From the IMG/VR virus record IMGVR_UViG_3300009154_000029: 64,000 bases of DNA; one strand, given 5' to 3'. A program made the translations under genes and the position numbers. Source of the stretch: a virus (lineage: Duplodnaviria > Heunggongvirae > Uroviricota > Caudoviricetes). Shown in pieces: positions 5,678-54,408 of this stretch (position 1 is the first letter of the stretch; each line of letters opens with the position of its first letter). The notes under the pieces are model-generated. The model had not been told where the DNA came from, did not search any database, and saw nothing but the letters and a program-made list of their open reading frames with translations.

Positions 5678-5707
5678 AGTCTAAGCCCCGTAAGGCTTAG
5701 GCTTTTT
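5678..5707. terminator. Bidirectional terminator
   Basis: AAGTCTAAGCC-CCGTAA-GGCTTAGGCTTT between convergent genes. Confidence 0.8.
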
Positions 5708-6642
5708 TATGCGTACTTGGCCCAATTGCTAACTTTAAGGTTAGAGGTAAGTGAAGGACCCATATACTTGATAAATTCACGAATATTTCTTTTTAGACAC
5801 TGAACTCCTGCGTTAGCATTGTCTTCTATATTAAAAATGTCACCACCTGGAACATATTTAGTAAACTCTTCTTTGCTAAGAGCGAATAGTCCCCTATATC
5901 TTTTGTTTCCAACTTTTGGATTCAGCCCAGATTCTGTAGTAGCTACAGTGATAGCAAAATCGAAAGGCACGTTATACTTATTGCAATATTTAGTAATAGC
6001 ATTCTTTACCAGCTGGTTCTTTGGCTGGTTTATCAAACTCTGAGCTTCTTTTTGCTTGTAATTCCATTTCTCTTTCCACATAGTCATAAATAGATAAGCC
6101 GCAGATTTTTGATCTCCTGCATCTAAAGATTTTATTATTCCACTCTTAACTTTCGGCCTATCCGAAGGCACATTCATTATTAGGTTAGCGTATTTTACTC
6201 CCGCTTTAGTTTTAATTGTATCTGGATGCATAGTACCAATCCCCATAAAAGCTCTAAGAATACCCGTGGCTCCCGCAATACCTTGTTGATGCTGCATATA
6301 CAACATGAAGTCGTCATTTCCTGGAACCTGTGATATTCCCGAAACCGTTGACGACGGTTTTTGTGACGGCTCGTCTTTTAGGTCTGATGCACTGACGGTT
6401 CCAATTCTAGATTCACCGCTATCAACTACTGAATTTGATGTGCTTGTCCCTGGAGTTGTTCCCGGGGTGGTGGTTTGACCCACTCCATAGTTCTTAGCTA
6501 ATGCTTTTAGATATTCCACGTCTCCAGAAAGAAGAGCGGGTAGGGCTTTAGCTAGATCTTTTTTAAGTCCCTCATTTCCGTAGAATTCCTCATTGAGGTG
6601 ATTACCAGATTTTTCGAAGTCTTCAAAGTTTTTTATTGTCAT
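5707..6642 (-). CDS. Lytic transglycosylase (SLT-like), apparently permuted, with N-terminal tag
   Basis: TTESGLNP catalytic Glu motif, YRGLFAL, NANAGVQCL; GATATATA upstream. Confidence 0.75.
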   Translation of the reverse strand: MTIKNFEDFEKSGNHLNEEFYGNEGLKKDLAKALPALLSGDVEYLKALAKNYGVGQTTTPGTTPGTSTSNSVVDSGESRIGTVSASDLKDEPSQKPSSTVSGISQVPGNDDFMLYMQHQQGIAGATGILRAFMGIGTMHPDTIKTKAGVKYANLIMNVPSDRPKVKSGIIKSLDAGDQKSAAYLFMTMWKEKWNYKQKEAQSLINQPKNQLVKNAITKYCNKYNVPFDFAITVATTESGLNPKVGNKRYRGLFALSKEEFTKYVPGGDIFNIEDNANAGVQCLKRNIREFIKYMGPSLTSNLKVSNWAKYA

Positions 6643-6715
6643 ATCCTATATATCTCCATAATAATTTTTTTATCTCAAGAAGATGTCGTATATTTGTGTT
6701 CTAAAACTTAAAACT

Positions 6716-17863: not shown

Positions 17864-18135
17864 CAAAAACTCGGTGGTTGTTTTAAGAGTCCTGTTTTTC
17901 AGGACTCTTTTTTTGTGTGCGTGGTAAATCCTCAAGTAATCCAAGAAACCACCAGGAACCGTTGGCGACGGTATTGCCCGGAGACAGCATCGAAATATGT
18001 CAACTGGAATCTTCGGAAAGTGTAAAGCCTTGGATAGTATAGTACTAAGGTACTCCCGCGCGAAGGGATTTTTTGGTGTTTTTATTTTTTTATCCTAGGA
18101 AGAATCCTTAATTTTAACCTATAAAACAAAACACC

Positions 18136-18273
18136 ATGAAACAGTTATCAAAATTATTCATTGTCTCGTTAATCAAAGCCTTTTTAGCCTTTCAGGTTCT
18201 GACTGCAGTTGTTAGCATGTATTACATAACAAAGTTCTTTATTATGGTGCTCTCCTTTTTTCATTCCAATTAA
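18136..18273 (+). CDS. Small membrane peptide (45 aa)
   Basis: Hand-translated; hydrophobic; behind promoter. Confidence 0.6.
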   Translation: MKQLSKLFIVSLIKAFLAFQVLTAVVSMYYITKFFIMVLSFFHSN

Positions 18274-18324
18274 TTTTTTTATCCGGATAGGATTCTTTAT
18301 ATTTGTAATCTAAACCAAACCATC

Positions 18325-18672
18325 ATGAAATTCGAAATTGAAGAAATCCAGGTTAGAGCCTACGAAAGAAGATCTGGCGAAAAGTATAAGCATCTTCCTA
18401 AGATCTATATCTTCCCCGAGGGAGAGAGTGTATTGGAAGGACTTTATAATCGTCGTCAACGTCCATATAAATTCTTCAAACAGGAAATCGTTCCGCTGGT
18501 TATTGAAGACCTTAGTAAGAATCACAAAGGTATATTTGACCGGATTGGTGGGGACAAATGGGGATGGCGTCAAGACTGCGGATGTTCAATGTGTCCTTGT
18601 TCCCCCGGTTTCGTAGGTAGCAGCGAGTACGAACCCCACAACATTTACGTCACGGTTAGATTCTCAGAATAA
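18325..18672 (+). CDS. Phage protein with CGC..CPCSPGF motif
   Basis: 115 aa ORF behind promoter. Confidence 0.85.
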   Translation: MKFEIEEIQVRAYERRSGEKYKHLPKIYIFPEGESVLEGLYNRRQRPYKFFKQEIVPLVIEDLSKNHKGIFDRIGGDKWGWRQDCGCSMCPCSPGFVGSSEYEPHNIYVTVRFSE

Positions 18673-18723
18673 TTTTTTTATCCGGAGGGGATACCCTATA
18701 TTTGCATTCTAAAAATCAGCAGC

Positions 18724-18963
18724 ATGCTTAACTATAAAGTGCTGGGCGGAGACGTCCTCATCTTCAAGAACACCAACGATACTCTAACGATCTGTCGGGG
18801 CTCGCTCGGTAGTCCTATCATAGATCAGATAGAGATCAACGGCGAGGCCTTGGATTGGTTCCACGAGGTTCACCCCTTCGATAGGGAAGAGAACACCTTC
18901 ACCGAAGAGGAGCTTGATTATTTCATAGCTCACTATAACGAGATCGTTGGTCCAAGCTACTAA
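18724..18963 (+). CDS. Hypothetical protein
   Basis: 79 aa ORF behind promoter. Confidence 0.8.
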   Translation: MLNYKVLGGDVLIFKNTNDTLTICRGSLGSPIIDQIEINGEALDWFHEVHPFDREENTFTEEELDYFIAHYNEIVGPSY

Positions 18964-19034
18964 CGAATCTTTTAGTGAAAATATTTTTTTATTTGGTGGG
19001 AGAGCTGTATATTTGCCTTCTAAAACACACCACC

Positions 19035-19535
19035 ATGAAAAAGCAAATCGTTCGTTCTAATGTCAACCCCCTCCGTCTCCGCGAACTTTTCTTCGCCGGT
19101 AATTCAACCCTTACTTTTCAGAACACTGCGTCGGGCACTCACATGACCGTTAAGGTTAAGCAAGCCCGCGACAGACAAGACCGCAAGAAGAAGTTGCCCA
19201 TCTTCTTCGTTAACGTTTCGTTATTGGGCGACCAGACCACCGGTTTCATCTTCGGTGGCACTTTCTTTACCGACACCATGACTTTGAAGCTGAGCAAGCA
19301 CGCTCCCTCTAATTCTCAGCTCGGTCGAGTTATGGCTTGGTTATTCCACTCAGTGCAAAACCCCACGGTCCTAAGAGAGAAGCGAGTTTCACTTCTTCAC
19401 GAAGGTCGTTGCTGCCGTTGCGCACTTCCTCTCACTCACCCCGAGTCAATCAACAGCGGTTTCGGACCCGATTGCTTGGAAATGGTTTTAGCCCAAACCA
19501 AACTGAACGTTAAAGACTTCTTCGAGAAAATATAG
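19035..19535 (+). CDS. DUF6011-like Zn-finger protein
   Basis: GRCCRCALPLTHPESINSGFGPDC. Confidence 0.8.
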   Translation: MKKQIVRSNVNPLRLRELFFAGNSTLTFQNTASGTHMTVKVKQARDRQDRKKKLPIFFVNVSLLGDQTTGFIFGGTFFTDTMTLKLSKHAPSNSQLGRVMAWLFHSVQNPTVLREKRVSLLHEGRCCRCALPLTHPESINSGFGPDCLEMVLAQTKLNVKDFFEKI

Positions 19536-19657
19536 TTTTATGGTTGGTGAATACACAAAGGTCCTTTTCCAAGGACCTTTTTTGTTGCTGTAGATTTTTG
19601 TAGACATTTCGAAGCTGTCTCTGGGTAATACCGTTGCCAACGGTTCCGCGGCTGCAA

Positions 19658-19720
19658 ATCCAGGATAATGCCTGGATCAAACCTGGATATCACTGGATAA
19701 AACCCTGGATTATTTTTCCA
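19658..19720 (+). repeat. Helically phased CTGGAT repeats
   Basis: CTGGAT at 19672, 19683, 19693, 19705 and inverted ATCCAG at 19658. Confidence 0.75.
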
Positions 19721-19784
19721 GATGCTCTATCGCTAAACCGTGGGTTTATTTTTTTACTCCGTAACAACGGTTTACATTAGCGTC

Positions 19785-20198
19785 ATGAGTATATCTTACC
19801 TAGAAAGATTAAGAGAATCGCACAAGAAGGAAGCCGCTTACTTGAGAGGCATATATGGATCCAGCGGTTTACTGAATGGCATTTCCAAGCTATCTGATTT
19901 CTTTTATGGATTGGATAAGGACGGAGGAATAGAATGCTACGAAGAGCATACAGGAAACGTGGAAAGACGATTTGAAATTCGAACAGAAAGTCTGTATCTA
20001 TCTGTCTTCTGTACACCCCAATCATATCCCACGTTTTCACTTCATAGTAGAATCTACGAAAAGACAATAAATAAATTCAAAAAAATTGGACATGAGCACA
20101 TCCTCGAAACCTCGGACGTTGACGCTCTTATCGCTTATATCTACTTTCTAATTGGCTCCGTCGATCCCGAGAGAGGCAAATGGATTAAGCTTAGATAG
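19785..20198 (+). CDS. Hypothetical protein with C-terminal DPxxGKW motif
   Basis: Ends SVDPERGKWIKLR; compare 22443. Confidence 0.8.
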   Translation: MSISYLERLRESHKKEAAYLRGIYGSSGLLNGISKLSDFFYGLDKDGGIECYEEHTGNVERRFEIRTESLYLSVFCTPQSYPTFSLHSRIYEKTINKFKKIGHEHILETSDVDALIAYIYFLIGSVDPERGKWIKLR

Positions 20199-20266
20199 TA
20201 TAGTAGTAACATACTGCGCACGCGAGCGAAACCGGGGGCTAATTGATAACACATTAAATCTATAAC

Positions 20267-20605
20267 ATGGAAAAGATCCCATTTGAAAAAGCTTTAGAGA
20301 TGACCCAGTACCCGGAATCGAGTGAATGGTATGATTTTGGAAAGGGATCGGATGTGGGAGCTGACCAAATAAATGAGTGGATAAGGGAGGGACTTGACCG
20401 GATTAGAATGGAATATTTAAAGGGTGATGAATCTCCTTCTACATACACTATGAGCGGTAATACGCTCGTTGCTATCTTTGGCTTTACAGATGATGACGGT
20501 TCACACAATGTGAGCATATTTGTCTCTAAATCACACAAGAAGATGGAAATAGACAACTTAGAAACCCTCGTGGACGTGGAGTTTGTGGAAATAGATAAAG
20601 GCTAA
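20267..20605 (+). CDS. Hypothetical acidic protein
   Basis: 112 aa ORF. Confidence 0.8.
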   Translation: MEKIPFEKALEMTQYPESSEWYDFGKGSDVGADQINEWIREGLDRIRMEYLKGDESPSTYTMSGNTLVAIFGFTDDDGSHNVSIFVSKSHKKMEIDNLETLVDVEFVEIDKG

Positions 20606-20709
20606 GAAAAAGATTCTGCTCTATCTCTATTCCGCCGCCGGCGGTTCCGATTCCCCTAAATCCAGATTCAATCTAAGGAATCCAAGAGAATCACAGGGAA
20701 TGTAAACTC

Positions 20710-20883
20710 CTACTTATTATTCTCCGTCGGTTCTACGGTATGACCAATCGCTTCGATTTCTTTCAGCTTCTTCTCATACATCATTTTATAATGCTCTTTT
20801 GTCCAACCATCGTTTCCGTCGTGGTTCATTTCAAACTTAAATTGAAGCAACAGCTTTTCGTGTGTTATTAAATTTTCTTCCAT
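20710..20883 (-). CDS. Small hypothetical protein (57 aa)
   Basis: Hand-translated MEENLITHEKLLLQFKF...; GATAAATA upstream on minus strand. Confidence 0.6.
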   Translation of the reverse strand: MEENLITHEKLLLQFKFEMNHDGNDGWTKEHYKMMYEKKLKEIEAIGHTVEPTENNK

Positions 20884-20987
20884 ATCTTATTTATCGTTAA
20901 GAATTTGAAAGATTCCCGAAAAAGCCTTAATAAGATTTTTTTATTTAACCCGGAAGCCCTACATTTGCCTTCTAAACCCAACCCACT

Positions 20988-21131
20988 ATGACCAACAGAC
21001 AGCTCACCATCTTTAGTCTTCTTATCTTTTACTTTATTGTCATCTGTTTCCTATTAACAAGTTGCTCGAGATCTATTACCCCGTTCGAGGCCGCCAACGG
21101 TAAGGCGAGGTGTGGCAGATCCCTCCGCTGA
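20988..21131 (+). CDS. Small lipoprotein (47 aa)
   Basis: Signal peptide with lipobox LTSC; behind promoter. Confidence 0.7.
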   Translation: MTNRQLTIFSLLIFYFIVICFLLTSCSRSITPFEAANGKARCGRSLR

Positions 21132-21222
21132 AGGGATAAGGTATTCTCTAACGAAACTTTTAGAGGGAAAATTTTTTTTCTATCAGGAAGGGCTGTATAT
21201 TTGCCTTCTAAACAACAACACC

Positions 21223-21501
21223 ATGAGAATTATCAAATTAACCTACCAGGCCCCAGAATCACAAAAAACCGCTTTCGCCAACGCTATCGACAAGGTGATC
21301 GCACAACTTCCCAAGAACTCGCCAGACACAGTGGTTGTGAGAAAATCAGACACTGTGGCGTGTTTCGACCTCCGCTATATTGCGCCCATGCTTTGGGAGC
21401 GCACGATCCAGAAACTTGGTCTCATCGACGCCAAGGAGATCGGGCAGACCACAACTTGGGAGGGTGAGGGGAAAAAAATAACAAACATGCGTGGGAGGTA
21501 A
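21223..21501 (+). CDS. Hypothetical protein
   Basis: Start reassigned behind promoter. Confidence 0.8.
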   Translation: MRIIKLTYQAPESQKTAFANAIDKVIAQLPKNSPDTVVVRKSDTVACFDLRYIAPMLWERTIQKLGLIDAKEIGQTTTWEGEGKKITNMRGR

Positions 21502-21750
21502 CCCCCGCGCTTTCAACAGCTTCTCGCTATATCCCATCCATTCAGCTCCAAAAAAGACCGACCCCTATTTCGATAGGGGTTTTTCTTGCTCCCATAAAAA
21601 GCGGAAAAAAGTGGTTGGAAAAAGTTTTGTAGTAACATCCTAATACCGTCGCCAACGGTTCCGCCGCCCTAAATCCAGAAAAGATTTCCGGCGTTTTCTG
21701 AATCGCACTTCAGGAACTTGATATATAGTGCTATACATAAGAATCACGAA

Positions 21751-22254
21751 ATGAAAAACCTAAAACTATTTGAACAATTCAGTGAGGAGCTATTTGAAGC
21801 CGACGCTATTCCACTGCTTAGTGTTCTTGCTACTCCAAAAAACATCAACTTCTTCTCTGATCCGAAAGATCCGAAATCAATTCTTTTAGCGCAAAGGGAT
21901 GCTAGAGGTGCGGTGATACCAGGCACAACTCACAAATACACAATCAAAGGGGATTATGGTCTGATGGGTTTTGATGTGGCGCTAAGAAATGTCAAAAGAA
22001 ATCGTGTTGGAGATTTGTTAGCAGAGGCAAAGCCAACGGGTTTACTTGCTGGAAAGCTGATGGGGTTTCTTCCTAATAAGACCAAAAAAGGAAACGATTT
22101 AAAGACCAAGGATGGTTGGCTATACATTCAAGTTCCTGTAGGCAAGCTAAACACGTCAATAGCTGACCTGGTTAAGAATCAAGGAAAGAAAGCCAAGATC
22201 GATGCAGGAAGCGGTGTTACAGTCACATTAAAGTATCAAGGTCCAGTTGCTTAG
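21751..22254 (+). CDS. N-tagged (MKNLKLFEQF) hypothetical protein
   Basis: GATATATA at 21720; shared N-terminal tag. Confidence 0.85.
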   Translation: MKNLKLFEQFSEELFEADAIPLLSVLATPKNINFFSDPKDPKSILLAQRDARGAVIPGTTHKYTIKGDYGLMGFDVALRNVKRNRVGDLLAEAKPTGLLAGKLMGFLPNKTKKGNDLKTKDGWLYIQVPVGKLNTSIADLVKNQGKKAKIDAGSGVTVTLKYQGPVA

Positions 22255-22442
22255 ATCCAGTTAAAATCATAACAGCCCACAGATTCTGTGGGTTTTTTGT
22301 GTGTAGTGGTTTATGGTATCCAGTGTCTAAACCGTGGGTCCTGACATAGTATGATGGTAACATAGTGCGCACGCGGGCGGGAACAGGGGGGTATCTGGAA
22401 TCTTTTTTATTCTTCGGGTATAATCTCTATATTTAACATGTC

Positions 22443-22859
22443 ATGAACGAATTCACGCTAACACAAATGTTTAAGGATAAGTCTTGGAAAGGTCGCTATA
22501 AAGGGGTTCAGCACATTGAGGCCTTAATAGATGAAATCTGTGAGACCCACGGTATAACCCCTGAGACGGAAAAACACAATATTGGCTCCTGGGCGCTCAC
22601 AGAGAAGAGAACCATGAAAACCATCGTTCCCGAGACAGCCGCACTAAAAGGACTTTGGCTCATGTTTACCTACAGTGTACCAATTGGCTCTAGTCCAGAA
22701 CCGATGACTCTGCATGCTTTATCGCCTATCTCCGGAAACGTTGAATTAAAAACTGAGGATCCTTCCGTTATCATCTCTGTGCTAGCCACTCTAATAAGCG
22801 CCCACGATCCCGACCATGGCAAATGGGTAAACTGGCACAACCCCTCGCCCGGAAAATAA
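22443..22859 (+). CDS. Hypothetical protein with C-terminal DPxxGKW motif
   Basis: Ends AHDPDHGKWVNW. Confidence 0.8.
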   Translation: MNEFTLTQMFKDKSWKGRYKGVQHIEALIDEICETHGITPETEKHNIGSWALTEKRTMKTIVPETAALKGLWLMFTYSVPIGSSPEPMTLHALSPISGNVELKTEDPSVIISVLATLISAHDPDHGKWVNWHNPSPGK

Positions 22860-22939
22860 ATCTCCGAAAAGATTTTTTACTTTGGGTTTTTTCCCTTACA
22901 TTTGTGAAACAAATGCACATAACCCCTAAATCATCTACT

Positions 22940-23206
22940 ATGAGACTAATCCTCTTTATGCTACTCGTCCTCGGTTTCACGGCTTGCACTGTGACCAACC
23001 ACCCACACAACCCAGAAGGACACGGCTTCCTGGTAAGGGCCGGAAAGATCACACCTACGAGAATAAAGGGTGTCTTTATTGTGCAAGGCATGGACGTGAA
23101 CGGCAGGATCCTCGGTCCTCGCTTCAGAGCTAGATTCAAGGTTACACCACATGTTGGGGATTGTGTAATGGTCTGCAGGGATCAAATTATGGAACCAAAA
23201 TTCTAA
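22940..23206 (+). CDS. Lipoprotein
   Basis: MRLILFMLLVLGFTAC lipobox. Confidence 0.65.
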   Translation: MRLILFMLLVLGFTACTVTNHPHNPEGHGFLVRAGKITPTRIKGVFIVQGMDVNGRILGPRFRARFKVTPHVGDCVMVCRDQIMEPKF

Positions 23207-23377
23207 ACCAAAAACTCACCTATATGCAAACCGTCGCCGGCCTAGCCATTCTCGTCCTTTATCTGATATGTGGGCTTAGTCTCATACATCTAGTCATTGA
23301 GGACCTGAAAAAATAACACCAAAAGAATTTTTTTATTTCACGGGAAGGCTGTATATTTGCCTTCTAAACCACTTATC

Positions 23378-23677
23378 ATGAAATCAACTCTCTTCATTCT
23401 CGCTACGTTCTTCTTCGGCCTTGCGGGCCTGCTTTTCACTGGGACCCTCCAGGAGCTTATCCACTTCGGCGGTTCGGCCAGCGAGATAGCTTGCTTCTCC
23501 CTGGCTTTTGTGGGTGGTGCTATCTGTCTGGTAGGGGCCTTCCAAAAGGAGATCATAACCCCTCGCACAGTGGCGAATCCCTCACCCTCGTTCCACGCCC
23601 AGGACATAGAGATTGAGGCTGATCGCTGGGAGGAGAGAGAAGCCATAGTCAGGGAGATGCTGGAGATGGAGAACTAG
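23378..23677 (+). CDS. Membrane protein (2 TM)
   Basis: Last gene behind an early promoter. Confidence 0.8.
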   Translation: MKSTLFILATFFFGLAGLLFTGTLQELIHFGGSASEIACFSLAFVGGAICLVGAFQKEIITPRTVANPSPSFHAQDIEIEADRWEEREAIVREMLEMEN

Positions 23678-23832
23678 GAGTTTAACACCTTTCTAACGGA
23701 GTCCCTTTGATAGGGGCTTTTTTTGTGGGGAGGAGTTGGGAAGGGAAAAAGATTTTGCTCTAGCTCTATACCGCCGCCAGCGGTTCCGCTTCCAAATCTA
23801 TTTCTTGGTTTTATTGGCTTTCCTGAGAAATA

Positions 23833-23988
23833 GGGGCCCTCCAAAAAGATGGAGGGGGGTTAAAACAGGGTCCCTGGTAGGGGGGTTAAAGGCCCCTCGT
23901 GTATAGGGGGCTTCTAGGGGAGGGATCCGCTTAGGGGACCCCTAAATGGGCATTTTGGGGGAGGGGCTTTAGGGGTAAATCTAAGGGG
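23833..23988 (+). other. G-run tract with G-quadruplex potential
   Basis: 13 runs of 3-6 G; TAGGGG recurs about 6 times; non-coding. Confidence 0.8.
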
Positions 23989-24026
23989 CCTCGCGTATGA
24001 GGAACTTTAACGTTTCACTAAACGCC

Positions 24027-24136
24027 AGGTCCGAGTTCTTATCAGTCTTTTAGGTCTTATCAGTCTTCTAGTTCTTATCAGTCTTTTAGGTCTTATCAGT
24101 AGGTCTTATCAATAGGTCCGAGTTCTTATCAGTCTT
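24027..24136 (+). repeat. Tandem iteron-like repeat TCTTATCAGT (6 copies, 18-bp period)
   Basis: Copies at 24037, 24055, 24073, 24091, 24104 (TCTTATCAAT), 24124; AGGTCCGAGTTCTTATCAGTCTT duplicated at 24027 and 24114. Confidence 0.92.
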
Positions 24137-24185
24137 CTATATCCCAATCTCGCCCTTCTTATAGGTAACCTATAATATATAGCAT

Positions 24186-24773
24186 ATGAGACCTTTTGTT
24201 CTGTTCCTCCTTCTTTCTGTCTGTGCCTTCTCTCAGGATCCCAAAATCGCCAAGTATAATCGGGAGATAGACTCCCTAAAGGGTGTGTATGGCATTCCAA
24301 CCACTATGGGCTACACCAAGACCGTTATTAGAGACGAGGATGGTATCAGGGAGACCATGGTCCTGTTCTATAGAAAGGGTGGTGAGACCGAGGAGGTGAT
24401 ACTATGGACCAAGCAACTCGGCAGCAAGGACTCCATTATTATTCTTGGCCAGCTCTCCTTCCCTGTCGTGGATCTACCCAAGGGCACTGTCATGCCCAAG
24501 CCCAAGTTGGACTGTGACTTCTATCATACCGGCAGTGCGATCTACTCTGACAACCGGCTCTTCGGTGTTCTCTTTGACTCCCGGTGTCGTAAACGCAAGT
24601 ACTTTCTGTTGAAGGAAGCCGTTCCCAATCAGAGCCTCTTAGGTGTCATAGACGAGCACGGCATCTATATAGGCCAGTACCTCATTCCCATTGAGTGGTG
24701 GAACTCTCATGTCCAGGGGGCCCTTTCAAAGGCGCAGATCCTGTGGATCCGGGATTATTTCAAGCTGGATTAG
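24186..24773 (+). CDS. Secreted hypothetical protein
   Basis: Signal peptide; AATATATA upstream. Confidence 0.8.
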   Translation: MRPFVLFLLLSVCAFSQDPKIAKYNREIDSLKGVYGIPTTMGYTKTVIRDEDGIRETMVLFYRKGGETEEVILWTKQLGSKDSIIILGQLSFPVVDLPKGTVMPKPKLDCDFYHTGSAIYSDNRLFGVLFDSRCRKRKYFLLKEAVPNQSLLGVIDEHGIYIGQYLIPIEWWNSHVQGALSKAQILWIRDYFKLD

Positions 24774-24806
24774 AATATATAAGGCAGATTAAAAAAAATT
24801 GAATTT

Positions 24807-25304
24807 ATGAAGCACATTCAAATCTACGAAAACTTTGATCTTGAGTTCAACTCAGAAGATTTCGTTTTCGAAGGAGACGTTACTAAAACACCAGACGCCC
24901 TATTTAATAAGGCTGTTGACTCCCTGCCTAAGGGAAAGGATCCATATAAAGTAACAAAAAACCTCTTTTCAAAGCGAAATTTTCAAACCTCGCAAAAACT
25001 CGCGAAGGCTGTAGGTAAGGGTCTACTATATGCAACCCCTGTAGTAGGTCAGGTTTATGCTCTTGGTCAGATATTGACCTCAGAGGTTGGTAAAAAATCA
25101 ATCAAGGCTATAATAGACGTAACCCCATTCGGTCTTCTTAAGAATATGGCTTTGGCTGCTGCTAATGGTGACGCCAAAACATTCGGTGAAGCATATGACA
25201 AAGCCTCAGTTTATAGGAAGAAGGATTTCGAAGAGCTTAAAGGCGCCATCTTTAATGACCTGAAAGGATTTGGATCTCTTTTGAAAAAAATGGGGGTTCG
25301 TTAA
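24807..25304 (+). CDS. N-tagged (MKHIQIYENF) protein
   Basis: Shared N-terminal tag. Confidence 0.85.
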   Translation: MKHIQIYENFDLEFNSEDFVFEGDVTKTPDALFNKAVDSLPKGKDPYKVTKNLFSKRNFQTSQKLAKAVGKGLLYATPVVGQVYALGQILTSEVGKKSIKAIIDVTPFGLLKNMALAAANGDAKTFGEAYDKASVYRKKDFEELKGAIFNDLKGFGSLLKKMGVR

Positions 25305-25305
25305 T

Positions 25306-25818
25306 TTGAAGCACCTTAAATACTATAACATTTTCGAGAGCGAGCCCTCTGACTACACCATTATTGGAGTTTATAGTTCACCTGGTAAAGAGGCTGCCTT
25401 AGCTAAGCTTAGAGAGGTTGGCATGCAGTGGCTAGCCGGTCAACTTTCATCAGAAGCAGCTTGGGATAGCTACTTCCGTGAGAATAGCAAATTTGTTATT
25501 CTGCAGGGTCCCTCAGGTGAATACCTCACCACCATCTTGCCCGGCAATTTTTCAAAGAATCTTCAAAATCTGGCGACTGCAAGATACTTCACGGTGGATG
25601 CAAATAATCGTAGAATCACAGATCCTGAAGAGCTTAAAAAAATCACACAAGCCCTATCAAATATCACCCCAGACGATGACATAGTTTCTTATCTTAAAGC
25701 AAATCCCATGGATCAGGACCTTATAGATGAGCATCCGAGAAGGGATGAGCTGATTCAGAAGACCGGAGCAAAAGACATTTCCACCCTAGCTCGTGCCATG
25801 AGAAAGGGCATGATCTAA
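25306..25818 (+). CDS. N-tagged protein with conserved C-terminal module
   Basis: TTG start MKHLKYYNIFE; ends YLKANP...KDISTLARAMRKGMI. Confidence 0.85.
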   Translation: MKHLKYYNIFESEPSDYTIIGVYSSPGKEAALAKLREVGMQWLAGQLSSEAAWDSYFRENSKFVILQGPSGEYLTTILPGNFSKNLQNLATARYFTVDANNRRITDPEELKKITQALSNITPDDDIVSYLKANPMDQDLIDEHPRRDELIQKTGAKDISTLARAMRKGMI

Positions 25819-25832
25819 GAATATATAAGAGC

Positions 25833-26216
25833 ATGAAACACCTCACATCATACCATTTATACGAGTCCGCACCATTGGGTGTGCAGGGCGCCAACTTCGT
25901 TATATCCCCTGCCTATAAAAAACTTGCCGATCTCTTAAAACCTAAAGGGTTTATCGAAGACATCTTCAATATCAAGAAGTCCATGTATTTTATTCTCAAG
26001 AAGGGCAATGATTACGATGGCATCATTCTGAACTACAGCGCCAAGGCCGGAGATTGGACTTGGGTGGTAACTCAAGGTGGTGTGGAGAAGCTTAGACAAG
26101 ATGAGGTGAAAGATTCGCCCGCCATCTATGATGAAATTCTAAAGGGCATTGCCCCTTATCTTAATATGGAGATTCGTGTTGATCCTGCTATTCTTAGAAA
26201 GCTAGGCATCAATTAA
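25833..26216 (+). CDS. N-tagged (MKHLTSYHLYE) protein
   Basis: AATATATA at 25820. Confidence 0.85.
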   Translation: MKHLTSYHLYESAPLGVQGANFVISPAYKKLADLLKPKGFIEDIFNIKKSMYFILKKGNDYDGIILNYSAKAGDWTWVVTQGGVEKLRQDEVKDSPAIYDEILKGIAPYLNMEIRVDPAILRKLGIN

Positions 26217-26742
26217 GTCTTCTGAGTGTTGCAAAGTGAGTGGGTGATTCGGCTATAACGTCCCTTGACTTCTTCCAGTCCTCTATATTGCCGAGACGCT
26301 TGTCTTGCACTCCCCACACATAGTCAAATCTGTGATCATTAAAGTACCAAGTTTTTAGCAGATTGCCATACCCTTGGGATCTCCACTCAGGCAGAAGGGA
26401 TAGCGCTATGCCTTGAAGGCCTTTATCCCCTAGTGGCTCGTTCAGGTAGATCTCTGTGGAGTCGGCCGGGAAATCCTTCAGCACACCCCTATGTATATCA
26501 TCGATAAACACATTAACGGATTTTTCGGCTAGCAGGTAGCAGCCCACTGTTTGGCCGTCTATAGAGAGCTTGAGTGATAAACCATTGAGCATCCTCGGTC
26601 TAAGCTTGGCGGCTATAGTATCCCTTGTGTCGATATGTCCAAATGAGGTGTAGAGCACCTCCACCACCTGTGGGATATCCTCCTCCTTGATAGTGGAAAT
26701 TGTGGGAATAGAGAATGTCTCATAGAGCATTAGATTGCGCAT
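26209..26742 (-). CDS. GNAT-like acetyltransferase with N-tag
   Basis: LLPEWRSQGYGNLL acetyl-CoA motif A; MRNLMLYETF. Confidence 0.75.
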   Translation of the reverse strand: MRNLMLYETFSIPTISTIKEEDIPQVVEVLYTSFGHIDTRDTIAAKLRPRMLNGLSLKLSIDGQTVGCYLLAEKSVNVFIDDIHRGVLKDFPADSTEIYLNEPLGDKGLQGIALSLLPEWRSQGYGNLLKTWYFNDHRFDYVWGVQDKRLGNIEDWKKSRDVIAESPTHFATLRRLN

Positions 26743-26799
26743 GGTTTATATATCATGTGTGCGGCAAAATCTTCTTGCCGGTGGTGAATATATAAGACA

Positions 26800-27525
26800 A
26801 TGAAGCACATACATAAATTTGTCAATTTAAACGAGGCTGGGAAATCTCCTGTTCCATCTGCTCCTTCTGCAGTGACTCCTATCGGATTTATCATCTACCT
26901 TAGAAACTGTTGGTACTATGGTGCCTTCCCCACCTTTCATGACTTTGCCTCTCTGGTGTATGAGGATTTCTCAGGCATGGATGTCGAGGGTGAATTCTTT
27001 GGTGAGATGGCATTGCTTAAGCAGAGTCTCTGGAAGACTTTGGATGATAGCGGTCAAGGTGGAGAGCTGGCTAGTGATGACGTTGATAGCTCGAGCCTCT
27101 GGTGGGGCATGACTCCCAAGTGTGCCCCCAACATTCTGCTTCAACACTACTTTCCAGGTAATCCCTACACAGCCTCCAAAGCGCTTGACCTAGCTTTTAG
27201 TGGCACTAAGACGATTATGGATAAGTGGACGAGCGGACGTGAGAGGGATCTCGGTTATATTGGGCTTTCCATTCAGAACGATCCCCTTCAATTCGACATG
27301 TATATTGAGAAGTACTCCAATAAAGATGATGACGATAAAGACTTCACCTTTTCAGATATCGTCAAGGTTACCCCCGTCTCGGCGATAGCATCATATATGA
27401 AAATGAATCCCATGAATCTGGATCTGCTGGATCCATTTCCAAAGATCAAGGGGGAAGTGATAAAAATCGCAGACATCAAAGACACATCAACTCTAGCTAG
27501 AGGTCTAAGAAGAGGCCTAATATAA
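26800..27525 (+). CDS. N-tagged protein with conserved C-terminal module
   Basis: MKHIHKFVNLNEA; ends YMKMNP...KDTSTLARGLRRGLI. Confidence 0.85.
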   Translation: MKHIHKFVNLNEAGKSPVPSAPSAVTPIGFIIYLRNCWYYGAFPTFHDFASLVYEDFSGMDVEGEFFGEMALLKQSLWKTLDDSGQGGELASDDVDSSSLWWGMTPKCAPNILLQHYFPGNPYTASKALDLAFSGTKTIMDKWTSGRERDLGYIGLSIQNDPLQFDMYIEKYSNKDDDDKDFTFSDIVKVTPVSAIASYMKMNPMNLDLLDPFPKIKGEVIKIADIKDTSTLARGLRRGLI

Positions 27526-27535
27526 AAACAAAACA

Positions 27536-28348
27536 ATGAAGCACGTTCAACTATTCGAAGCCTTTCTAAAAGGCATGGATAAAGGGATTTTTCTTAGACT
27601 GGCTAAAAGCGGTGAGGTTCCTCAAGTTTACCAAGGCGTAACCCTTACCAGCAATAAAAGGGTGAGTTCAAGACTCTATAAAGACACGTCAGTGGAAACC
27701 TCAAAAAGGGATCTCTATGAGTTTCCCAACAAGGAGAGCCTGATAGAGGACACCAAGTATATGCAGGGTTCAGTAACCCAAAAGGATATTAGATCTCTAA
27801 TAGAACTTGGGTTTATTAAAATGCACCCACAGGTGGATCTCACCGCCTATGATCTTATTCTTACCCCGCAGAGCACATCTCTAGTGCTGGATGAAATCAT
27901 GAACGTTCTGCTCAACGTTGAGCCTTCCAGTGCATATGGACCAGCCAAAACTTGGAACCCCCAAGTTATCAGAGGTGCTTTCACCAAAAGAACATGGAAC
28001 GAGGTTGAATGGGATACGGAGCTTATTGACAGACTCTCAAATAGTGGAACCAAGAATGAAGTGCTTAAACTCAAGGAGAGACTCACCACCACAAAGGGCG
28101 GAGAAAAAGCCAAGCTTAGTGGAAATGTGATTCCAAGATTCAGAAAGTTTCTAAAGCAGTTTATGGATATCACCCCAGAGGCTTTATCAGCTCTTGCGGG
28201 TCGCAAGGTGATTATCTTGGATGACTTTGTGACAGATGGTGCCACTAGAAGGCAAATGCAAAGGCTAGCAGTTCCAGGAGGACCACAGAAGATTCTAAAT
28301 CTGGCCCTATTCCATGTGGTTGGTTATAAACAAGAGGATGACGAGTAA
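27536..28348 (+). CDS. Type I phosphoribosyltransferase-like protein with N-tag
   Basis: KVIILDDFVTDGAT PRPP-binding motif; MKHVQLFEAF. Confidence 0.75.
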   Translation: MKHVQLFEAFLKGMDKGIFLRLAKSGEVPQVYQGVTLTSNKRVSSRLYKDTSVETSKRDLYEFPNKESLIEDTKYMQGSVTQKDIRSLIELGFIKMHPQVDLTAYDLILTPQSTSLVLDEIMNVLLNVEPSSAYGPAKTWNPQVIRGAFTKRTWNEVEWDTELIDRLSNSGTKNEVLKLKERLTTTKGGEKAKLSGNVIPRFRKFLKQFMDITPEALSALAGRKVIILDDFVTDGATRRQMQRLAVPGGPQKILNLALFHVVGYKQEDDE

Positions 28349-28423
28349 ATCGAATTAAGCCCCAATTTTTTTAGTAACGTCCAAGGCAAATATAATCCAA
28401 ACACTCAAAGAATATATATTCAT

Positions 28424-29089
28424 ATGAAAACATTCTATGGAGTTTTAACGGAGGCAGGAGAACCAGATCAGCAAAAGATGGTGGAAGAGCCTGAGAAAGT
28501 TCAAGCTCCAGAACCAGAACCGCTTAAGGGTTATATCATTTGGTCCCTAGTAGGCAGAGCAGCTTCAACCCCAGGGGCAAGCTTTATGACTGTCTGCTCC
28601 TCTAGTATTGTTTCCACATCTTTGCTTGACGCCATCCAAACGTTTATGGAAAAAAATCTGGAGATGACAAAAAAACTGTCTGATGAGGAAATGTTTGGGT
28701 TGTTAACAAATCCTTTAGGGGCACTTCCCGTAATTATAGACACACATCACCCAAATTCTTCAAAGTGTGGAGCTCTTAGAATCTGGACAGGAATGAAACC
28801 CAAAGAGCAAAAAGAGGTTTATAACAGGTTGCTTAGCTTTGATCCTTGGGGTTTAGTGTGGGATCTGGAAAGGCACTTTCAAGATGCAAGAACAGCGTTT
28901 ACTATACATGGGGATAGCAAAAAAGAGCTAGCAGAAAATGTGGGAGAGATCTACGCCTATTTCAAGGCCAATCCACTAAATCTCTATCTTCTGGATTCAG
29001 ATCCAGAGCTAAAGAAGAAAGTTATAGAGGCTACCGGCATTAAAGATATAGGTAAACTCGGAAAAGCCATGAGTAAAGGCATGATATAA
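28424..29089 (+). CDS. N-tagged protein with conserved C-terminal module
   Basis: MKTFYGVLTEA; ends YFKANP...KDIGKLGKAMSKGMI. Confidence 0.85.
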   Translation: MKTFYGVLTEAGEPDQQKMVEEPEKVQAPEPEPLKGYIIWSLVGRAASTPGASFMTVCSSSIVSTSLLDAIQTFMEKNLEMTKKLSDEEMFGLLTNPLGALPVIIDTHHPNSSKCGALRIWTGMKPKEQKEVYNRLLSFDPWGLVWDLERHFQDARTAFTIHGDSKKELAENVGEIYAYFKANPLNLYLLDSDPELKKKVIEATGIKDIGKLGKAMSKGMI

Positions 29090-29095
29090 TCATTT

Positions 29096-29752
29096 ATGAG
29101 ACACCTATTAACATACGAGATTTTTGAGTCCCAAGAGGAAACCGGTGAATTTGGCCTGGTGATTTTTCTGAAATGCGAAATTAAGGATGAAGGGGAGATT
29201 AAACCCGCAGTAGTGGTTCTAATGTCATCCGGTGAAAACTCTAGATCAGCTATTGAAAACATGCTATTAGGCATGAATTCAAAAATAGACGATATAGAGA
29301 CAACCAAAGATCTTATTGCTTCATTTCAAACCACCAGTTTTACTGATGGAATCCTAGGAGGAAAAATCTCTAAGGTTTATGCGGTTATTCCATACAAAGC
29401 GATCCCAAGAGGATCTCAATCTGATTTCGATTGGGTGTGGTGCACATACAAAGATGTAAAAGATTTTGATCCTACAGATATGGGGGATTCGGATGATGAG
29501 GATAGCATTGTTAGTAAGGGCTGGGACACCGATCGGATTATGTCCAAACTATATGGCATGTTTAAATCTGACAGAAAGCTATTTCACAAAATAGCTTTAG
29601 GTGAACTAAGCAATATGGAGGGCGGATCTGATAATAAATTTCCAGTAGAGCCGGGGGATGATCCAAAGGCTAAATCAAATAAAAAGGCTCTAAAGAGAGG
29701 GGCAGAGGATATCACACTATTACGCCGCTCACTTAATAGAGGAATGCTTTAA
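29096..29752 (+). CDS. N-tagged protein with partial C-terminal module
   Basis: MRHLLTYEIFE; ends GAEDITLLRRSLNRGML. Confidence 0.85.
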   Translation: MRHLLTYEIFESQEETGEFGLVIFLKCEIKDEGEIKPAVVVLMSSGENSRSAIENMLLGMNSKIDDIETTKDLIASFQTTSFTDGILGGKISKVYAVIPYKAIPRGSQSDFDWVWCTYKDVKDFDPTDMGDSDDEDSIVSKGWDTDRIMSKLYGMFKSDRKLFHKIALGELSNMEGGSDNKFPVEPGDDPKAKSNKKALKRGAEDITLLRRSLNRGML

Positions 29753-29753
29753 T

Positions 29754-30068
29754 ATGAAAAATCTAGAGCTATATGAGAACTTTGGACGTGAGAGAATAAC
29801 AACACTCACATCGAGAAGAGGTAAGGACATCATTATCACGTTATTAGGAGCTCGTATTCAATCGATCGATAATCAGTCAGGGGTAAACTTCCCTTTCTCC
29901 GTTGGACAGAGTTATACGCAATCTATTGAGACGTGGGCATGTAATAATGGCTTTACGATTGATGGCAAATCACCATGCCCAGAGGAGAAGATCTTCGGAA
30001 TCAGAAAGAAGGATATCCCACAGGGGCATGAGCTTAGGTTTTTATTTCCTCATAAATTCAGAGACTAA
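29754..30068 (+). CDS. N-tagged (MKNLELYENF) protein
   Basis: 104 aa ORF. Confidence 0.8.
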   Translation: MKNLELYENFGRERITTLTSRRGKDIIITLLGARIQSIDNQSGVNFPFSVGQSYTQSIETWACNNGFTIDGKSPCPEEKIFGIRKKDIPQGHELRFLFPHKFRD

Positions 30069-30091: not shown

Positions 30092-30625
30092 ATGGAAGAA
30101 ATTGAAATGTCTATAGAGCCAAACACAGTTACGGTTAAAACACCAAAGGGCTTACCCGAAGAGATTGTGGCTATGTTAGAGGCTAGAATTGGAGACGAAT
30201 ATAAAGCTCACTACACCTATAGGAGTGCAGCCAATTGGTGTAAAAATGCCAACTACAAAAAAGCGGCTTCCTATTTTGAAAGCGAAGCAAACTCAGAACT
30301 TGAACATGCCAAGGGTCTTCAGGACTACCTCACTCAATGGAACATAATGCCACAGATTCCTGCGGTAGATCCAACTAGAGAGTTTAAAGGTCTAGTTGAT
30401 ATAGTGAACCAAGCTTATGCTATGGAGTATGCTCTTTTAGAGTCTTATTCAGATCAGCAAATTGAGCTAATAGATATGCATCCGGCAACACATAACTTTA
30501 TACAGAAGTACGTGGATATTCAGAACGAAGCGGTAGGCGAGTATTCAGATTTATTGAATGCTTTATGCTTGATCAATCCAGATAATAAATTGGATCTGCT
30601 TTACTTTGAGAAAAGATACTTCTAA
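30092..30625 (+). CDS. Ferritin-like protein (non-haem ferritin)
   Basis: EYKAHYTY, EANSELEHA (ExxH), QNE ferroxidase-type residues. Confidence 0.8.
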   Translation: MEEIEMSIEPNTVTVKTPKGLPEEIVAMLEARIGDEYKAHYTYRSAANWCKNANYKKAASYFESEANSELEHAKGLQDYLTQWNIMPQIPAVDPTREFKGLVDIVNQAYAMEYALLESYSDQQIELIDMHPATHNFIQKYVDIQNEAVGEYSDLLNALCLINPDNKLDLLYFEKRYF

Positions 30626-30704: not shown

Positions 30705-31280
30705 TTATTTGTCTTTGCCTTCTGATGCGTATTTAACCCCCATAATGGTACCAACAATACTGAATGCGTTGGTTAGAAGAATACCAAACATGTTGCTCCA
30801 TGTTGATCCTATAATCTGGGTATCCTTTCCAGTAAACATTGAAATGATATACATGATAGTGGTAACAACCCCAACACTTAGAATAACTAGCAAAGCCACT
30901 TTAACGATGGTGCTGATTAACTCGGTCTGCGATTTCTTCTGGAGAACGTCAAGATCGTTTAGAGCCAGATCCTTGGCTTTCTCAGCTTCAGCCTTAGCAC
31001 ATTCTGCATTATCTAAGGCTTCTTTAAGATCAACCAAAAGTTTTTGATTCTCCTCCTGAGAGGACAATAGATTCCTATTTTGGTCTTGAACATGTTTAGT
31101 AACGTCAAGTCTTCTCCTTCTAGAATCCTTATCTTTTTCCAAAGCGTCTGCTAAATATTTGGAGAATTCAGTATCTTCTGGATCCGCTTCCAATAATTTG
31201 AGAATGTTTCCTTCTAGTAAGACCCTTTTACTTTTTTGTATTTCAAGAAGGAGGTCTCTCGTGGATTTATCTACTTTCAT
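30705..31280 (-). CDS. Coiled-coil membrane protein of the two-component operon
   Basis: Coiled coil and 2 C-terminal TMs; overlaps the stop of the receiver gene. Confidence 0.8.
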   Translation of the reverse strand: MKVDKSTRDLLLEIQKSKRVLLEGNILKLLEADPEDTEFSKYLADALEKDKDSRRRRLDVTKHVQDQNRNLLSSQEENQKLLVDLKEALDNAECAKAEAEKAKDLALNDLDVLQKKSQTELISTIVKVALLVILSVGVVTTIMYIISMFTGKDTQIIGSTWSNMFGILLTNAFSIVGTIMGVKYASEGKDK

Positions 31281-31711
31281 TATTTATATACTTTAAATGG
31301 TAAAGTCTTGTTTTTATAACCTTGGAAATCTTTCTTGAATTCTTCAAGTCTTGGCTCAATCTCGTCAGACTTGATAATCCAGAATTGAGCACCTGCAGCT
31401 TTTGCTTTATCCTGCTCTGCTGGTTCGTTTGATGAAGATATAATTCCTATCACCACTCCGTTTCCATAGTCATTATTTACCTTACGAATAAGTTCAATAC
31501 CATCAAAAGATGAACCTATTATATTAAGATCTACAAAAACACATTCAGGTCTTCCTGCTGGTGTTTTTTGCCATCCCTCGAATAATTTTGCTGCTTCGTC
31601 TGAGCTGTCCAAACCCTCAAGAGATAGTGAGATGTCAAGAAGACTGCAAGCGTCTTCGAACACAAGATGAAATAAGCTTTCATCATCTACTAATAAAATT
31701 GAATCGATCAT
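31280..31711 (-). CDS. Single-domain response regulator (receiver)
   Basis: ILLVDDE, CVFVDLNI (phospho-Asp), IISSS, WIIK. Confidence 0.9.
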   Translation of the reverse strand: MIDSILLVDDESLFHLVFEDACSLLDISLSLEGLDSSDEAAKLFEGWQKTPAGRPECVFVDLNIIGSSFDGIELIRKVNNDYGNGVVIGIISSSNEPAEQDKAKAAGAQFWIIKSDEIEPRLEEFKKDFQGYKNKTLPFKVYK

Positions 31712-32253: not shown

Positions 32254-33876
32254 TTACTTTAATGTTATTTTCATTTGCGTTCCTATTTCTGGAAGTTTAC
32301 AACATGTTATTGAGAATCCATGTTCTTCTAGTATTGCAATACAGATATTAAGACCCAAACCAGTTCCCGATTCCTTCTGTCCTTCCTTACGTGTATATGG
32401 CTGCGAAAGATATTTAAAATCTTCAGAGCTTAATCCTCTTCCGTTATCTTCGATAAAAATCTCATTCTCTACTCTATAGATTTTAACAAATTTAGAATCG
32501 CTATCGTTGTATTTTAATCCATTTCTAATAAGATTATCTATTGAGGTGCAGAACAATGCTTCATTAACCTCAAACTCCCCAAGCGGTTCAAGAATTACTT
32601 GAGATCTATAAGCGGTAGCAGACAAATAATCTTCTAGAATTAAGTTTAAATCACATAGTGATTTGTTAAGTACCACGTCTTTCTTTACTAGGTTAGTAAA
32701 CTCATAAACCCCTTTATAAACTTTCTGGGTGTGTCTTAAACCCTCCTTAATCATTTTTAGTGGAGCTTCTATTTTTAAGTCTTTCATCTGCTGCTCACTT
32801 AGTCTTCTTTCTAAAGACGATAAACCTCTAGGCATATACGTGTTTATTCCACTGTGCATATCATGTCTAAGAATTTTTGCCGAATGCTCTAGATATGTGT
32901 TTTTCTTTTCAATTTCCTTTTTCTGATCCACCATGTTAGTAATATCAGTAGCAATTTTCATAACTCTATAAACTTTACCGTCAGTGTCTATAATTGGATT
33001 GTAAGTTGCTTGTAAATGTATTAATGATCCATCTTTGCGAACCCTTATAATCTCTCCGCTAAAAAATTCACCGGATCTAAGTGTTTTCCAGAAATCATTA
33101 TACTCCTTAGATTTTTCATATTCGTCCTCAATAAATATTTTGTGATGTTTTCCTATAATTTCAGAATCTGAAGAATATCCCATTGCTTCTACAAATAGCG
33201 GATTAGCAAACATTATGTTACCATTAAGATCAAATTCAATTACCGCATTTGATTTGTTTATCGCATTCATTCTATTTCGAATCTCAACTTCCTTTTTCTT
33301 TAGCTCCGTAATATCCTGACGAATTGACATAAATCCTAAAAAATTATCTTCTGTATCAAATTGCCCTTTAATAAAAGTATCAACGTAATAAAGTTCCCCG
33401 TTTTTTGCTTTATTTGTACAAACTGCGTTCCATACAAGTTTATCCTTGATAACAGTTTTATACATATCTGTCCAGAATTCTTTTGGATGATATCCTGAAT
33501 TAACTATATTATGATCATTTCCTACTGCTTCATCTAAGGTATACCCTGAGATCTCTGTAAACTTTTTATTGATGTGTGTAATTTTTCCTTTTGAATCTGC
33601 TTTAGAGACTATCGCCGAAGCTTCTATAAAATCATCAAGCTCTTTAAAATTTGCAGCCTGCTCTCCGGATATTGAAGATTTCAGCAGATGCGAATAATCT
33701 TTAATTATAAAATAAAAGCAGGGGATAAAACAGAGGAAACAAGAAAATTCTGACCATCTGGTTAATTGGGTAGAAGGTATAAATTCAAATAGAACTCGAA
33801 GCTTTATCACTAAAAAAATCAACATAATGATAGCGGAAAGATAGATTGCTATTCTTGTTCTCAGTTTAAGCTTCAT
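32254..33876 (-). CDS. PAS-PAS sensor histidine kinase
   Basis: 2 N-terminal TMs, two PAS/PAC domains, H-box LRHDM, N-box NLIRNGLKYN, DNGRG, GTGLGL. Confidence 0.92.
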   Translation of the reverse strand: MKLKLRTRIAIYLSAIIMLIFLVIKLRVLFEFIPSTQLTRWSEFSCFLCFIPCFYFIIKDYSHLLKSSISGEQAANFKELDDFIEASAIVSKADSKGKITHINKKFTEISGYTLDEAVGNDHNIVNSGYHPKEFWTDMYKTVIKDKLVWNAVCTNKAKNGELYYVDTFIKGQFDTEDNFLGFMSIRQDITELKKKEVEIRNRMNAINKSNAVIEFDLNGNIMFANPLFVEAMGYSSDSEIIGKHHKIFIEDEYEKSKEYNDFWKTLRSGEFFSGEIIRVRKDGSLIHLQATYNPIIDTDGKVYRVMKIATDITNMVDQKKEIEKKNTYLEHSAKILRHDMHSGINTYMPRGLSSLERRLSEQQMKDLKIEAPLKMIKEGLRHTQKVYKGVYEFTNLVKKDVVLNKSLCDLNLILEDYLSATAYRSQVILEPLGEFEVNEALFCTSIDNLIRNGLKYNDSDSKFVKIYRVENEIFIEDNGRGLSSEDFKYLSQPYTRKEGQKESGTGLGLNICIAILEEHGFSITCCKLPEIGTQMKITLK

Positions 33877-37102: not shown

Positions 37103-37189
37103 AATTTTTGTTTTTAATTATAGACCAAATATATGGAACATTTTCGGGTAAAAAAATAAAAAGGTATTTTTTTTTAGAATATATAGGAT

Positions 37190-53949: not shown

Positions 53950-54408
53950 ATGAAGAAATTAATTTACATCCCTCTAATTTTTATTTTATTAATCTGTTCA
54001 TCTTTTGCATTAATCACAAAGAACACAGGTATACCATTAGAAGGGATACAGGTTGTCAATCACTATATGTTTGGTAATGGAGAAGATCTAATTTTAAAAT
54101 CTGATTATTTACCAAATTCTCCCGTTATAAAGAGGAATTTAAAAACAATGAAAGTTGGGCAAACGAAAAGAATAGTTTTTAACCAAAAGGAAGACTGGAG
54201 ATTGTCTTATGCTTTAAACCCTTTTAATTTAAAGAAAACAAAGAATGGGTTTGAAATATATCAATATATTAAATTTGATAACACTGGTAATGTTTTCACC
54301 TATATAAAAACACCTTTCGGAAAAATAAAAGTTAATGATAATATAGTACACATTAAAAAGTGTAAACCATACATGGTTAGATATTATTATACAGGCTCTA
54401 CATTTTAA
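53950..54408 (+). CDS. Secreted hypothetical protein
   Basis: Signal peptide. Confidence 0.75.
   Translation: MKKLIYIPLIFILLICSSFALITKNTGIPLEGIQVVNHYMFGNGEDLILKSDYLPNSPVIKRNLKTMKVGQTKRIVFNQKEDWRLSYALNPFNLKKTKNGFEIYQYIKFDNTGNVFTYIKTPFGKIKVNDNIVHIKKCKPYMVRYYYTGSTF

Follow-up and report, generated by a model that had tools for sequence, protein, structure and literature searches.

What do neighbouring phage genes have in common when their products begin alike, end alike and seem to differ in between? The question is raised by four genes at positions 25,306 to 29,752 of a 64,000-nucleotide stretch of DNA, here called the window, from IMG/VR record IMGVR_UViG_3300009154_000029 (Caudoviricetes). 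The window is apparently part of a very large, uncultured lake phage, and lake-metagenome contigs from JGI and Logan, up to 88 kb long, contain identical copies of the window DNA. An earlier note on this DNA described a paralogue family with a fixed N-terminal tag, a fixed C-terminal module and unrelated middles, and proposed a polymorphic effector or anti-defence system. The module was found to mark a protein family that is real, large and uncatalogued. With a probability of roughly one half, we read the four genes as belonging to a large superfamily, absent from the catalogues, whose members are accessory proteins packaged in the head and injected, with a docking domain in common. The genes, referred to by their first position, are listed below.

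25306..25818, + strand: family member 1, 170 residues, TTG start; leader MKHLKYYNIFE; body of about 110 residues, family c5 (relatives P0010 and P0012); C-terminal module at 25666-25815
26800..27525, + strand: family member 2, 241 residues; leader MKHIHKFVNLNE; alpha/beta body, family c3; C-terminal module at 27373-27522
28424..29089, + strand: family member 3, 221 residues; T4-like leader MKTFYGVLTE; Pro/Glu-rich linker; c3 body homologous to that of member 2; C-terminal module at 28937-29086
29096..29752, + strand: family member 4, 218 residues; leader MRHLLTYEIFE; a third body family, in common with P0137; decayed C-terminal module, terminal basic helix only, at 29693-29749

The C-terminal module and its distribution

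In BLASTP comparisons, the products of 25306, 26800 and 28424 matched one another in their last 47 to 52 residues only, with 43-48% identity (E 1e-10 to 1e-13). Across the three tails, 14 of 52 columns are invariant and the alignment contains one single-residue gap. When a hidden Markov model (HMM) of the three tails was run against the six-frame translation of the window, it recovered these three genes only, at E of about 1e-30, and with a larger model of 126 sequences they scored E 1e-19 to 5e-24. These results bear out the module as first described on the three proteins. The gene at 29096 had been said to keep the last part of the module, and the match there covers just the final 19 residues, which is not significant with either model (E 0.27 with three sequences, E 5.2 with 126). 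From residue 67 to its very end, the 29096 protein aligns with P0137 (39% identity, E 5e-19), which carries a clean, full module on the same body. Since this alignment with a module-bearing protein runs to the end, we read 29096 as a family member with a decayed module, of which just the last helix is left.

In an exhaustive search of 1.84 billion representative proteins, the three-tail profile matched 137 with E no higher than 0.001, two of these matches being apparently spurious, which leaves about 135 protein clusters. On re-scoring with a larger model, the module ended no more than three residues from the stop in 135 of 138 proteins and exactly at the end in 119. The chain ends in I, L, F, V, Y or M in 119 of 123 module proteins, and Gly stands at position -3 in 109 of the 123. 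The core has the consensus NPLxLxLLDxxPxxKxxVLxRTG and the last helix IKDxSxLGRxLKxGLI-stop; the mean charge is -1.4 in the front half of the module and +3.2 in the rear half, and the whole proteins are acidic (pI 5.0-5.7). Five proteins have a second three-helix core at an internal position, where the last helix is missing (P0009, 229-273; P0017, 100-139; P0008, 68-108; P0021, 105-143; P0048, 102-139), and G001:C1:168681-169925 is a further case. Because the core occurs without the last helix in these five proteins and the last helix without the core in 29096, the two sub-elements are separable. The module thus combines a core of three helices with a basic helix that is seen only where the C-terminus is free.

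Neither Pfam nor PHROGs holds a family for the module, and no family in either library matched any of the four member proteins. A word-indexed homologue search with the module region returned the query alone; the same kind of search with the c3 alignment added one protein. In a tblastn search of 50,697 GenBank phage records with p28424 (the 28424 protein) and the leucine-rich repeat (LRR)-type protein P0018, no module was matched, and only LRR parts gave matches, in Vibrio phages and the LR7565xx huge phages. A one-peptide-pattern scan of 185,579 cellular genomes, which has limited sensitivity, found no relative. A scan of IMG/VR with the single protein p28424 gave nothing; the locus search of IMG/VR was made with a 12-row subset of the 126-row module alignment, and the module was found in phage genomes of 343-435 kb, at one to eight copies each and often in tandem arrays. 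The family is so far confined to huge (about 340-435 kb), T4-like freshwater phages.

Modelling of the 126 sequences by AlphaFold2 gave a confident four-helix domain of about 50 residues (predicted local distance difference test, pLDDT, 85), in which an acidic three-helix core precedes a basic amphipathic terminal helix whose last three residues are Gly and two hydrophobic ones. On this model, the module is predicted to fold autonomously, with the last helix inside the bundle (pLDDT about 75-87). Prediction of a two-copy complex gave a score of 0.01, which says nothing either way on self-association. Foldseek found no match to the module model in the PDB, and the best Z of an exhaustive structural alignment, 3.9, is noise for a small helical domain. 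The weak matches included the helix-turn-helix (HTH) proteins Mu C, DeoR and Fis and sigma domain 4, at Z 2.2-2.7.

The HTH matches bear on one alternative, in which the module would be a small nucleic-acid-binding domain, HTH-like or SAM-like, and the proteins would cover the packaged DNA or travel with it, like the basic internal proteins of T4. Its basic rear half would suit such a role, and in T4 the internal proteins touch DNA through their lysines (PMC3012670). However, every fold match, HTH proteins included, lies at noise level. Pfam HTH families matched none of the 126 modules even at E up to 10, SAM_1 and SAM_2 (PF00536 and PF07647) matched two or three of them at E of about 0.008-0.01, no more than a lead, and the proteins as wholes are acidic. 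We regard a nucleic-acid-binding module of this kind as distinctly improbable.

Bodies between leader and module

Direct BLAST comparison of the middles of the window proteins gave no match. Two further proteins, P0079 and P0028, each matched both 26800 and 28424 (E 1.8e-6 to 5e-4), and a full-length alignment of 26800 with 28424 revealed common motifs, namely G-Y/F at the first strand, W-x-G-L-x-P-K, N-P-Y and L-E-R-x-F. By these alignments, the two proteins are diverged paralogues over their whole length, with one alpha/beta body, c3. The body of 25306 forms a family with P0010 and P0012 (36-40% identity) and that of 29096 with P0137; comparison of the three window body families by hhalign gave probabilities under 3%, from shallow profiles. 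Because 26800 and 28424 are linked through intermediates, the four genes hold three body families and not four. The middles are thus unrelated, as the earlier note had it, at the level of three sequence families, but not between 26800 and 28424.

In a full-length model of p28424 (pLDDT 82.8; predicted template-modelling score, pTM, 0.78), the leader and linker are disordered; a four-stranded alpha/beta sandwich follows, and the four helices come last. No known fold was matched by the whole protein: Foldseek hits had E above 0.1, template-modelling (TM) scores in the ESM Atlas were 0.30 or less, and the best VIA Z, 4.7, was to generic ferredoxin-like ribosomal and PurS chains.

Family-wide, the bodies belong to at least 18 sequence families (18 BLAST components), and over half are LRR solenoids. 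The largest, with 68 of 123 proteins, is LRR-like, and 41 of its members carry the unit LxxLxGxPxxVxGxF. This unit was found in none of the 55 proteins outside the largest group, the four window proteins included, and these four had no match to an LRR family of Pfam. Since the four window genes lack the LRR unit, the tail is a portable domain and not an LRR cap. Leader-tagged variable phage proteins are as a kind already known from T4; the new element is a portable, strictly C-terminal domain on LRR and non-LRR bodies alike. One module-bearing metagenomic protein of 204 residues, P0088, has an N-terminal glutamine amidotransferase class-II domain (GATase_7, E 1e-10), which points either to a rare enzymatic kind of body or to a gene call that is chimeric.

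The architecture on which the proposal of a polymorphic effector or anti-defence system was built, with a constant leader, variable bodies and a constant C-terminal module, recurs across about 135 clusters; toxin, effector or anti-defence domains were recognised in none of 126 members. Polymorphic toxin systems such as Rhs and contact-dependent inhibition (CDI) combine a constant trafficking part with swappable functional parts and form paralogue arrays in variable loci. In Rhs and CDI, the variable toxin part is C-terminal and is followed by an immunity gene, whereas in the window family the variable part is central and the C-terminal end constant. No toxin-immunity pairing was seen in the window, where the neighbours are further tagged genes and not small immunity-like ones.

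The earlier note had asked whether middles swap between strains. On a tree of the module, the body labels require 33 changes, compared with 52 when shuffled and a possible minimum of 17, and each window module is nearest to modules on its own body family. In one relative, G001, a second C-terminal module of about 75 residues, ending in ...DMxxLGDLGF, occurs on one LRR body and one c4 body (L015:6076-6780, - strand; L019:3877-4470, + strand). Relatives of both bodies carry the usual module, and among five relatives the second module is present in G001 only. On this evidence, bodies and C-terminal ends do recombine. In three c3-body proteins of relatives, the C-terminal end has drifted beyond the range of the HMM and still aligns. 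The four window genes give no sign of recent swapping, and the module mostly co-diverges with its body. In our view, the architectures are products of domain exchange, most of them old.

The same observations bear on the simplest alternative, an ordinary diverging paralogue family from one duplicated gene. On that account, the C-terminal helices would be the most constrained cap, with no separate function, and the bodies would have drifted beyond recognition. This would fit the homology of 26800 and 28424, which seemed unrelated until intermediates were found, the drifted and still alignable ends of the three c3-body proteins, a module tree that follows body families, and a p28424 model whose pTM suits one compact unit. 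What it fails to accommodate is that no single fold can cover both LRR solenoids (41 of 68 proteins in the largest group) and the alpha/beta sandwich of p28424, that the three-helix core recurs as an internal second copy, and that LRR and c4 bodies are also found with another C-terminal module. The low profile-profile probabilities between the window body families also speak against it, within the limits of shallow profiles. We consider a single diverging family unlikely; were it right, this would be merely one more uncharacterised phage paralogue family.

The leader and proposed packaging into the phage head

All four window proteins begin with the leader, as the earlier note had claimed of its fixed tag, with [LI]xE starting at residue 8-10. 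A leader of the form MK/MR-x-(L/I)-x-x-(F/Y)-x-x-(F/L)-E or MKTF... opens nine of the nine genes between 24.8 and 30.1 kb. It is 10-13 residues long, resembles the T4 capsid-targeting sequence and ends in [LI]xE. Across the family, [LI]xE falls within residues 6-17 in 86 of 117 full-length members (about 74%), compared with 3-7% at internal control positions. A strict leader pattern was matched by 60% of members, 14% of window open reading frames and 7% of shuffled N-termini; by eye, the share of members with a leader is nearer three quarters. A gp21-type prohead protease (PF03420) scored over the curated cut-off in all five complete module-bearing relatives. By its sequence, the leader fits a T4-type head-targeting signal with a putative prohead-protease site.

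The locus turns over between relatives. Four of the five complete relatives encode a Clp-type ATPase 75-79% identical to that of the window, and in these the window genes at 21-30 kb have no orthologues, except for an anchor gene at 29754-30068. In the stretches of the relatives that were compared, almost nothing but this anchor has a counterpart to the 20-34 kb region of the window. The island upstream of the conserved anchor is different in every relative: in G001 and G004 it contains other module genes, with a different body, c4, and in G002 a c3-body gene with a drifted C-terminal end.

The T-even internal proteins are a diverse set in which the capsid-targeting sequence is the sole common part, and the T4 leader alone is sufficient for packaging (PMC3012670). 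Like the T4 proteins IPI, IPII, IPIII and Alt (MKTYQEFIAE), the window family has a short N-terminal leader, and p28424 and P0016 start MKTF..(L/I)xE. Further likenesses are the [LI]xE at the leader end, the gp21-type protease (here in relatives), otherwise unrelated bodies and a hypervariable locus (PMC3012670). Because the T4 picture is matched on four counts, namely the leader, [LI]xE, the protease (in relatives) and the hypervariable locus, head-packaged injected proteins are the favoured reading. The T4 internal proteins have the leader alone in common, whereas most members of the window family add a folded C-terminal domain of about 50 residues; the repertoire is also far larger and is dominated by LRR bodies, and its packaging is putative. 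Giant phages of the SPN3US/phiKZ group load large sets of proteins into the head interior by means of N-terminal propeptides; the prohead protease cuts these proteins, which are then passed on to the cell (PMC5694885, PMC7411985). These ejection or inner-body proteins belong to a different phage lineage and have a different cleavage motif, and, as far as the descriptions compared go, no shared C-terminal module is reported for them.

If the favoured reading is right, the leader would load the proteins into the prohead and then be clipped off after [LI]xE, and the proteins would be delivered along with the DNA. The variable bodies would bind different targets. The constant C-terminal domain would serve one step that all members share, of which docking to a single partner is the likeliest, with the free terminal helix as the contact element; candidate partners are the packaged DNA, a component of the head interior or a host surface such as the membrane. 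The terminal position, the conserved free end and the separable last helix together point to a contact element common to all members.

Several points weigh against this reading. A clear leader is missing in about a quarter of members, and the evidence for a prohead protease comes from relatives only and not from the window's own genome. Since the T4 leader alone suffices for packaging, packaging leaves the second constant domain unexplained. The pTM of 0.78 for full-length p28424 could also be compatible with a module that simply packs onto its body. The co-divergence of module and body implies that most architectures are old and not freshly shuffled, and the GenBank phage records searched include no cultured phage with the module.

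In a variant of this reading, head cargo in huge T4-like phages would carry two labels, an N-terminal leader for loading and a retained C-terminal domain whose basic helix is a second address read later. That address might dock the cargo on DNA or the head interior to order its ejection, direct it to a common host site or act as a handle for a phage Clp-type unfoldase. We consider this variant rather improbable; if true, the body-swapping LRR and other proteins would amount to a programmable delivery platform for binders.

A different alternative removes the proteins from the head. They would act in the infected cell, and the basic C-terminal helix with its free Gly-hydrophobic-hydrophobic end would be a recognition handle for an AAA+ unfoldase or a membrane. 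MuA has a basic C-terminal signal that is recognised by ClpX, and MinD and FtsA have membrane-targeting amphipathic helices. Consistent with a handle, the module is strictly terminal and its end residues are conserved, which hints that a free C-terminus is important, the internal module copies lack the last helix, and the window codes for a two-ring Clp-type ATPase (AAA_2, ClpB_D2-small; 51626-53680), the one conserved in four of the five relatives. However, AlphaFold2 places the last helix in the bundle and predicts no free tail, and a handle leaves the leader with its [LI]xE, and the prohead protease, without explanation. We hold this alternative to be rather improbable.

Among phage products, internal, injected proteins are the earliest to face the host defences. 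To our knowledge, internal-protein repertoires are almost unknown outside T4 and a few giant phages. If head packaging has been read correctly from the leader, sequence alone identifies a large, fast-turning cargo set across a clade of 340-435 kb phages, and most of this cargo would have in common a portable domain of about 50 residues that is absent from family libraries. A small, self-folding domain at a free C-terminus is an easy target for pull-down, DNA-binding or lipid-binding tests, and the module could serve as a search handle for such cargo in metagenomes.

The gene island and its surroundings

The four family members lie among nine tightly packed genes at 24.8-30.1 kb, all but one of them on the plus strand. 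The other five are as follows.

24807..25304, + strand: leader-tagged protein of unknown family, 165 residues; C-terminal end a short basic stretch, LLKKMGVR; no significant module match
25833..26216, + strand: leader-tagged protein of unknown family, 127 residues; C-terminal end ILRKLGIN; no significant module match
26209..26742, - strand: leader-tagged GNAT-fold protein, 177 residues, between family members; without the C-terminal module
27536..28348, + strand: leader-tagged phosphoribosyltransferase (PRTase)-like protein, 270 residues; phosphoribosyl pyrophosphate (PRPP)-loop motif VIILDDFVTDGAT; without the C-terminal module
29754..30068, + strand: leader-tagged anchor gene, 104 residues; 63-70% identity in five of five complete relatives; downstream edge of the variable island

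Interleaved GNAT and PRTase genes had been predicted in the island, and both folds have support in the ESM Atlas. For the GNAT candidate, the features score was 0.97, most of the 30 nearest clusters carry PF00583, and TM scores to GNAT clusters were 0.66-0.77, which is support at the fold level only; Pfam gave no match at E up to 0.1. The PRTase-like protein had a TM of 0.72 to a viral PRTase-domain cluster, and its match to PF00156 (E 0.0023; 17.7 bits, against a cut-off of 26.3) covers the PRPP loop only. A phmmer search of PDB sequences with both candidates gave nothing useful, and the PRTase-like gene is without a counterpart in the five relatives.

The G+C content is 0.42-0.47 in the island region (window positions 18000-30000), compared with 0.30-0.37 in most of the downstream 30000-64000, and the island's higher value suggests a different origin or recent acquisition. 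Many leader-tagged genes, often with almost no untranslated leader, have the motif (G)AATATATAAG or GATATATA(A/G)G at 4-30 nucleotides upstream of the ATG. Copies are placed as follows.

24774-24784, 25820-25830 and 26787-26797: upstream motif
28410-28419, 26745-26754 (- strand), 37170-37185 and 6645-6660 (- strand): similar sequences

By analogy with T4 TATAAATA, this motif may be a candidate late promoter of the phage group.

The window contains further repeats. In the intergenic segment 24034-24151, upstream of the gene at 24186, four overlapping 31-nucleotide copies start at spacings of 18, 18 and 51 nucleotides; the array is built of alternating 18-nucleotide units, AGTTCTTATCAGTCTTTT and AGGTCTTATCAGTCTTCT. 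A 47-nucleotide element occurs twice with 81% identity, at 21170-21216 upstream of the gene at 21223 and at 23326-23372 upstream of the gene at 23378. A 22-nucleotide near-palindrome, ATACCG(T/C)CGCCA(A/G)CGGTTCCGC, stands at 21643-21664 and 23768-23789, behind terminator-like hairpins.

Downstream, the island is followed by genes for a ferritin-like protein (30092-30625), a response-regulator receiver (31280-31711, - strand) and a multi-PAS histidine kinase (32254-33876, - strand), with no counterpart at the same place in the relatives compared. The window also contains a gene for a collagen/Mtd_N fibre protein, glycosyltransferase-like genes and several genes whose products carry an SLT or a peptidoglycan-binding domain. 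Among the leader-tagged genes, those at 41103-43421, 54398-55357, 55395-56447 and 5707-6642, all on the minus strand, encode PG_binding_1 or SLT lytic transglycosylase domains; such proteins would fit wall-degrading enzymes delivered from the particle.

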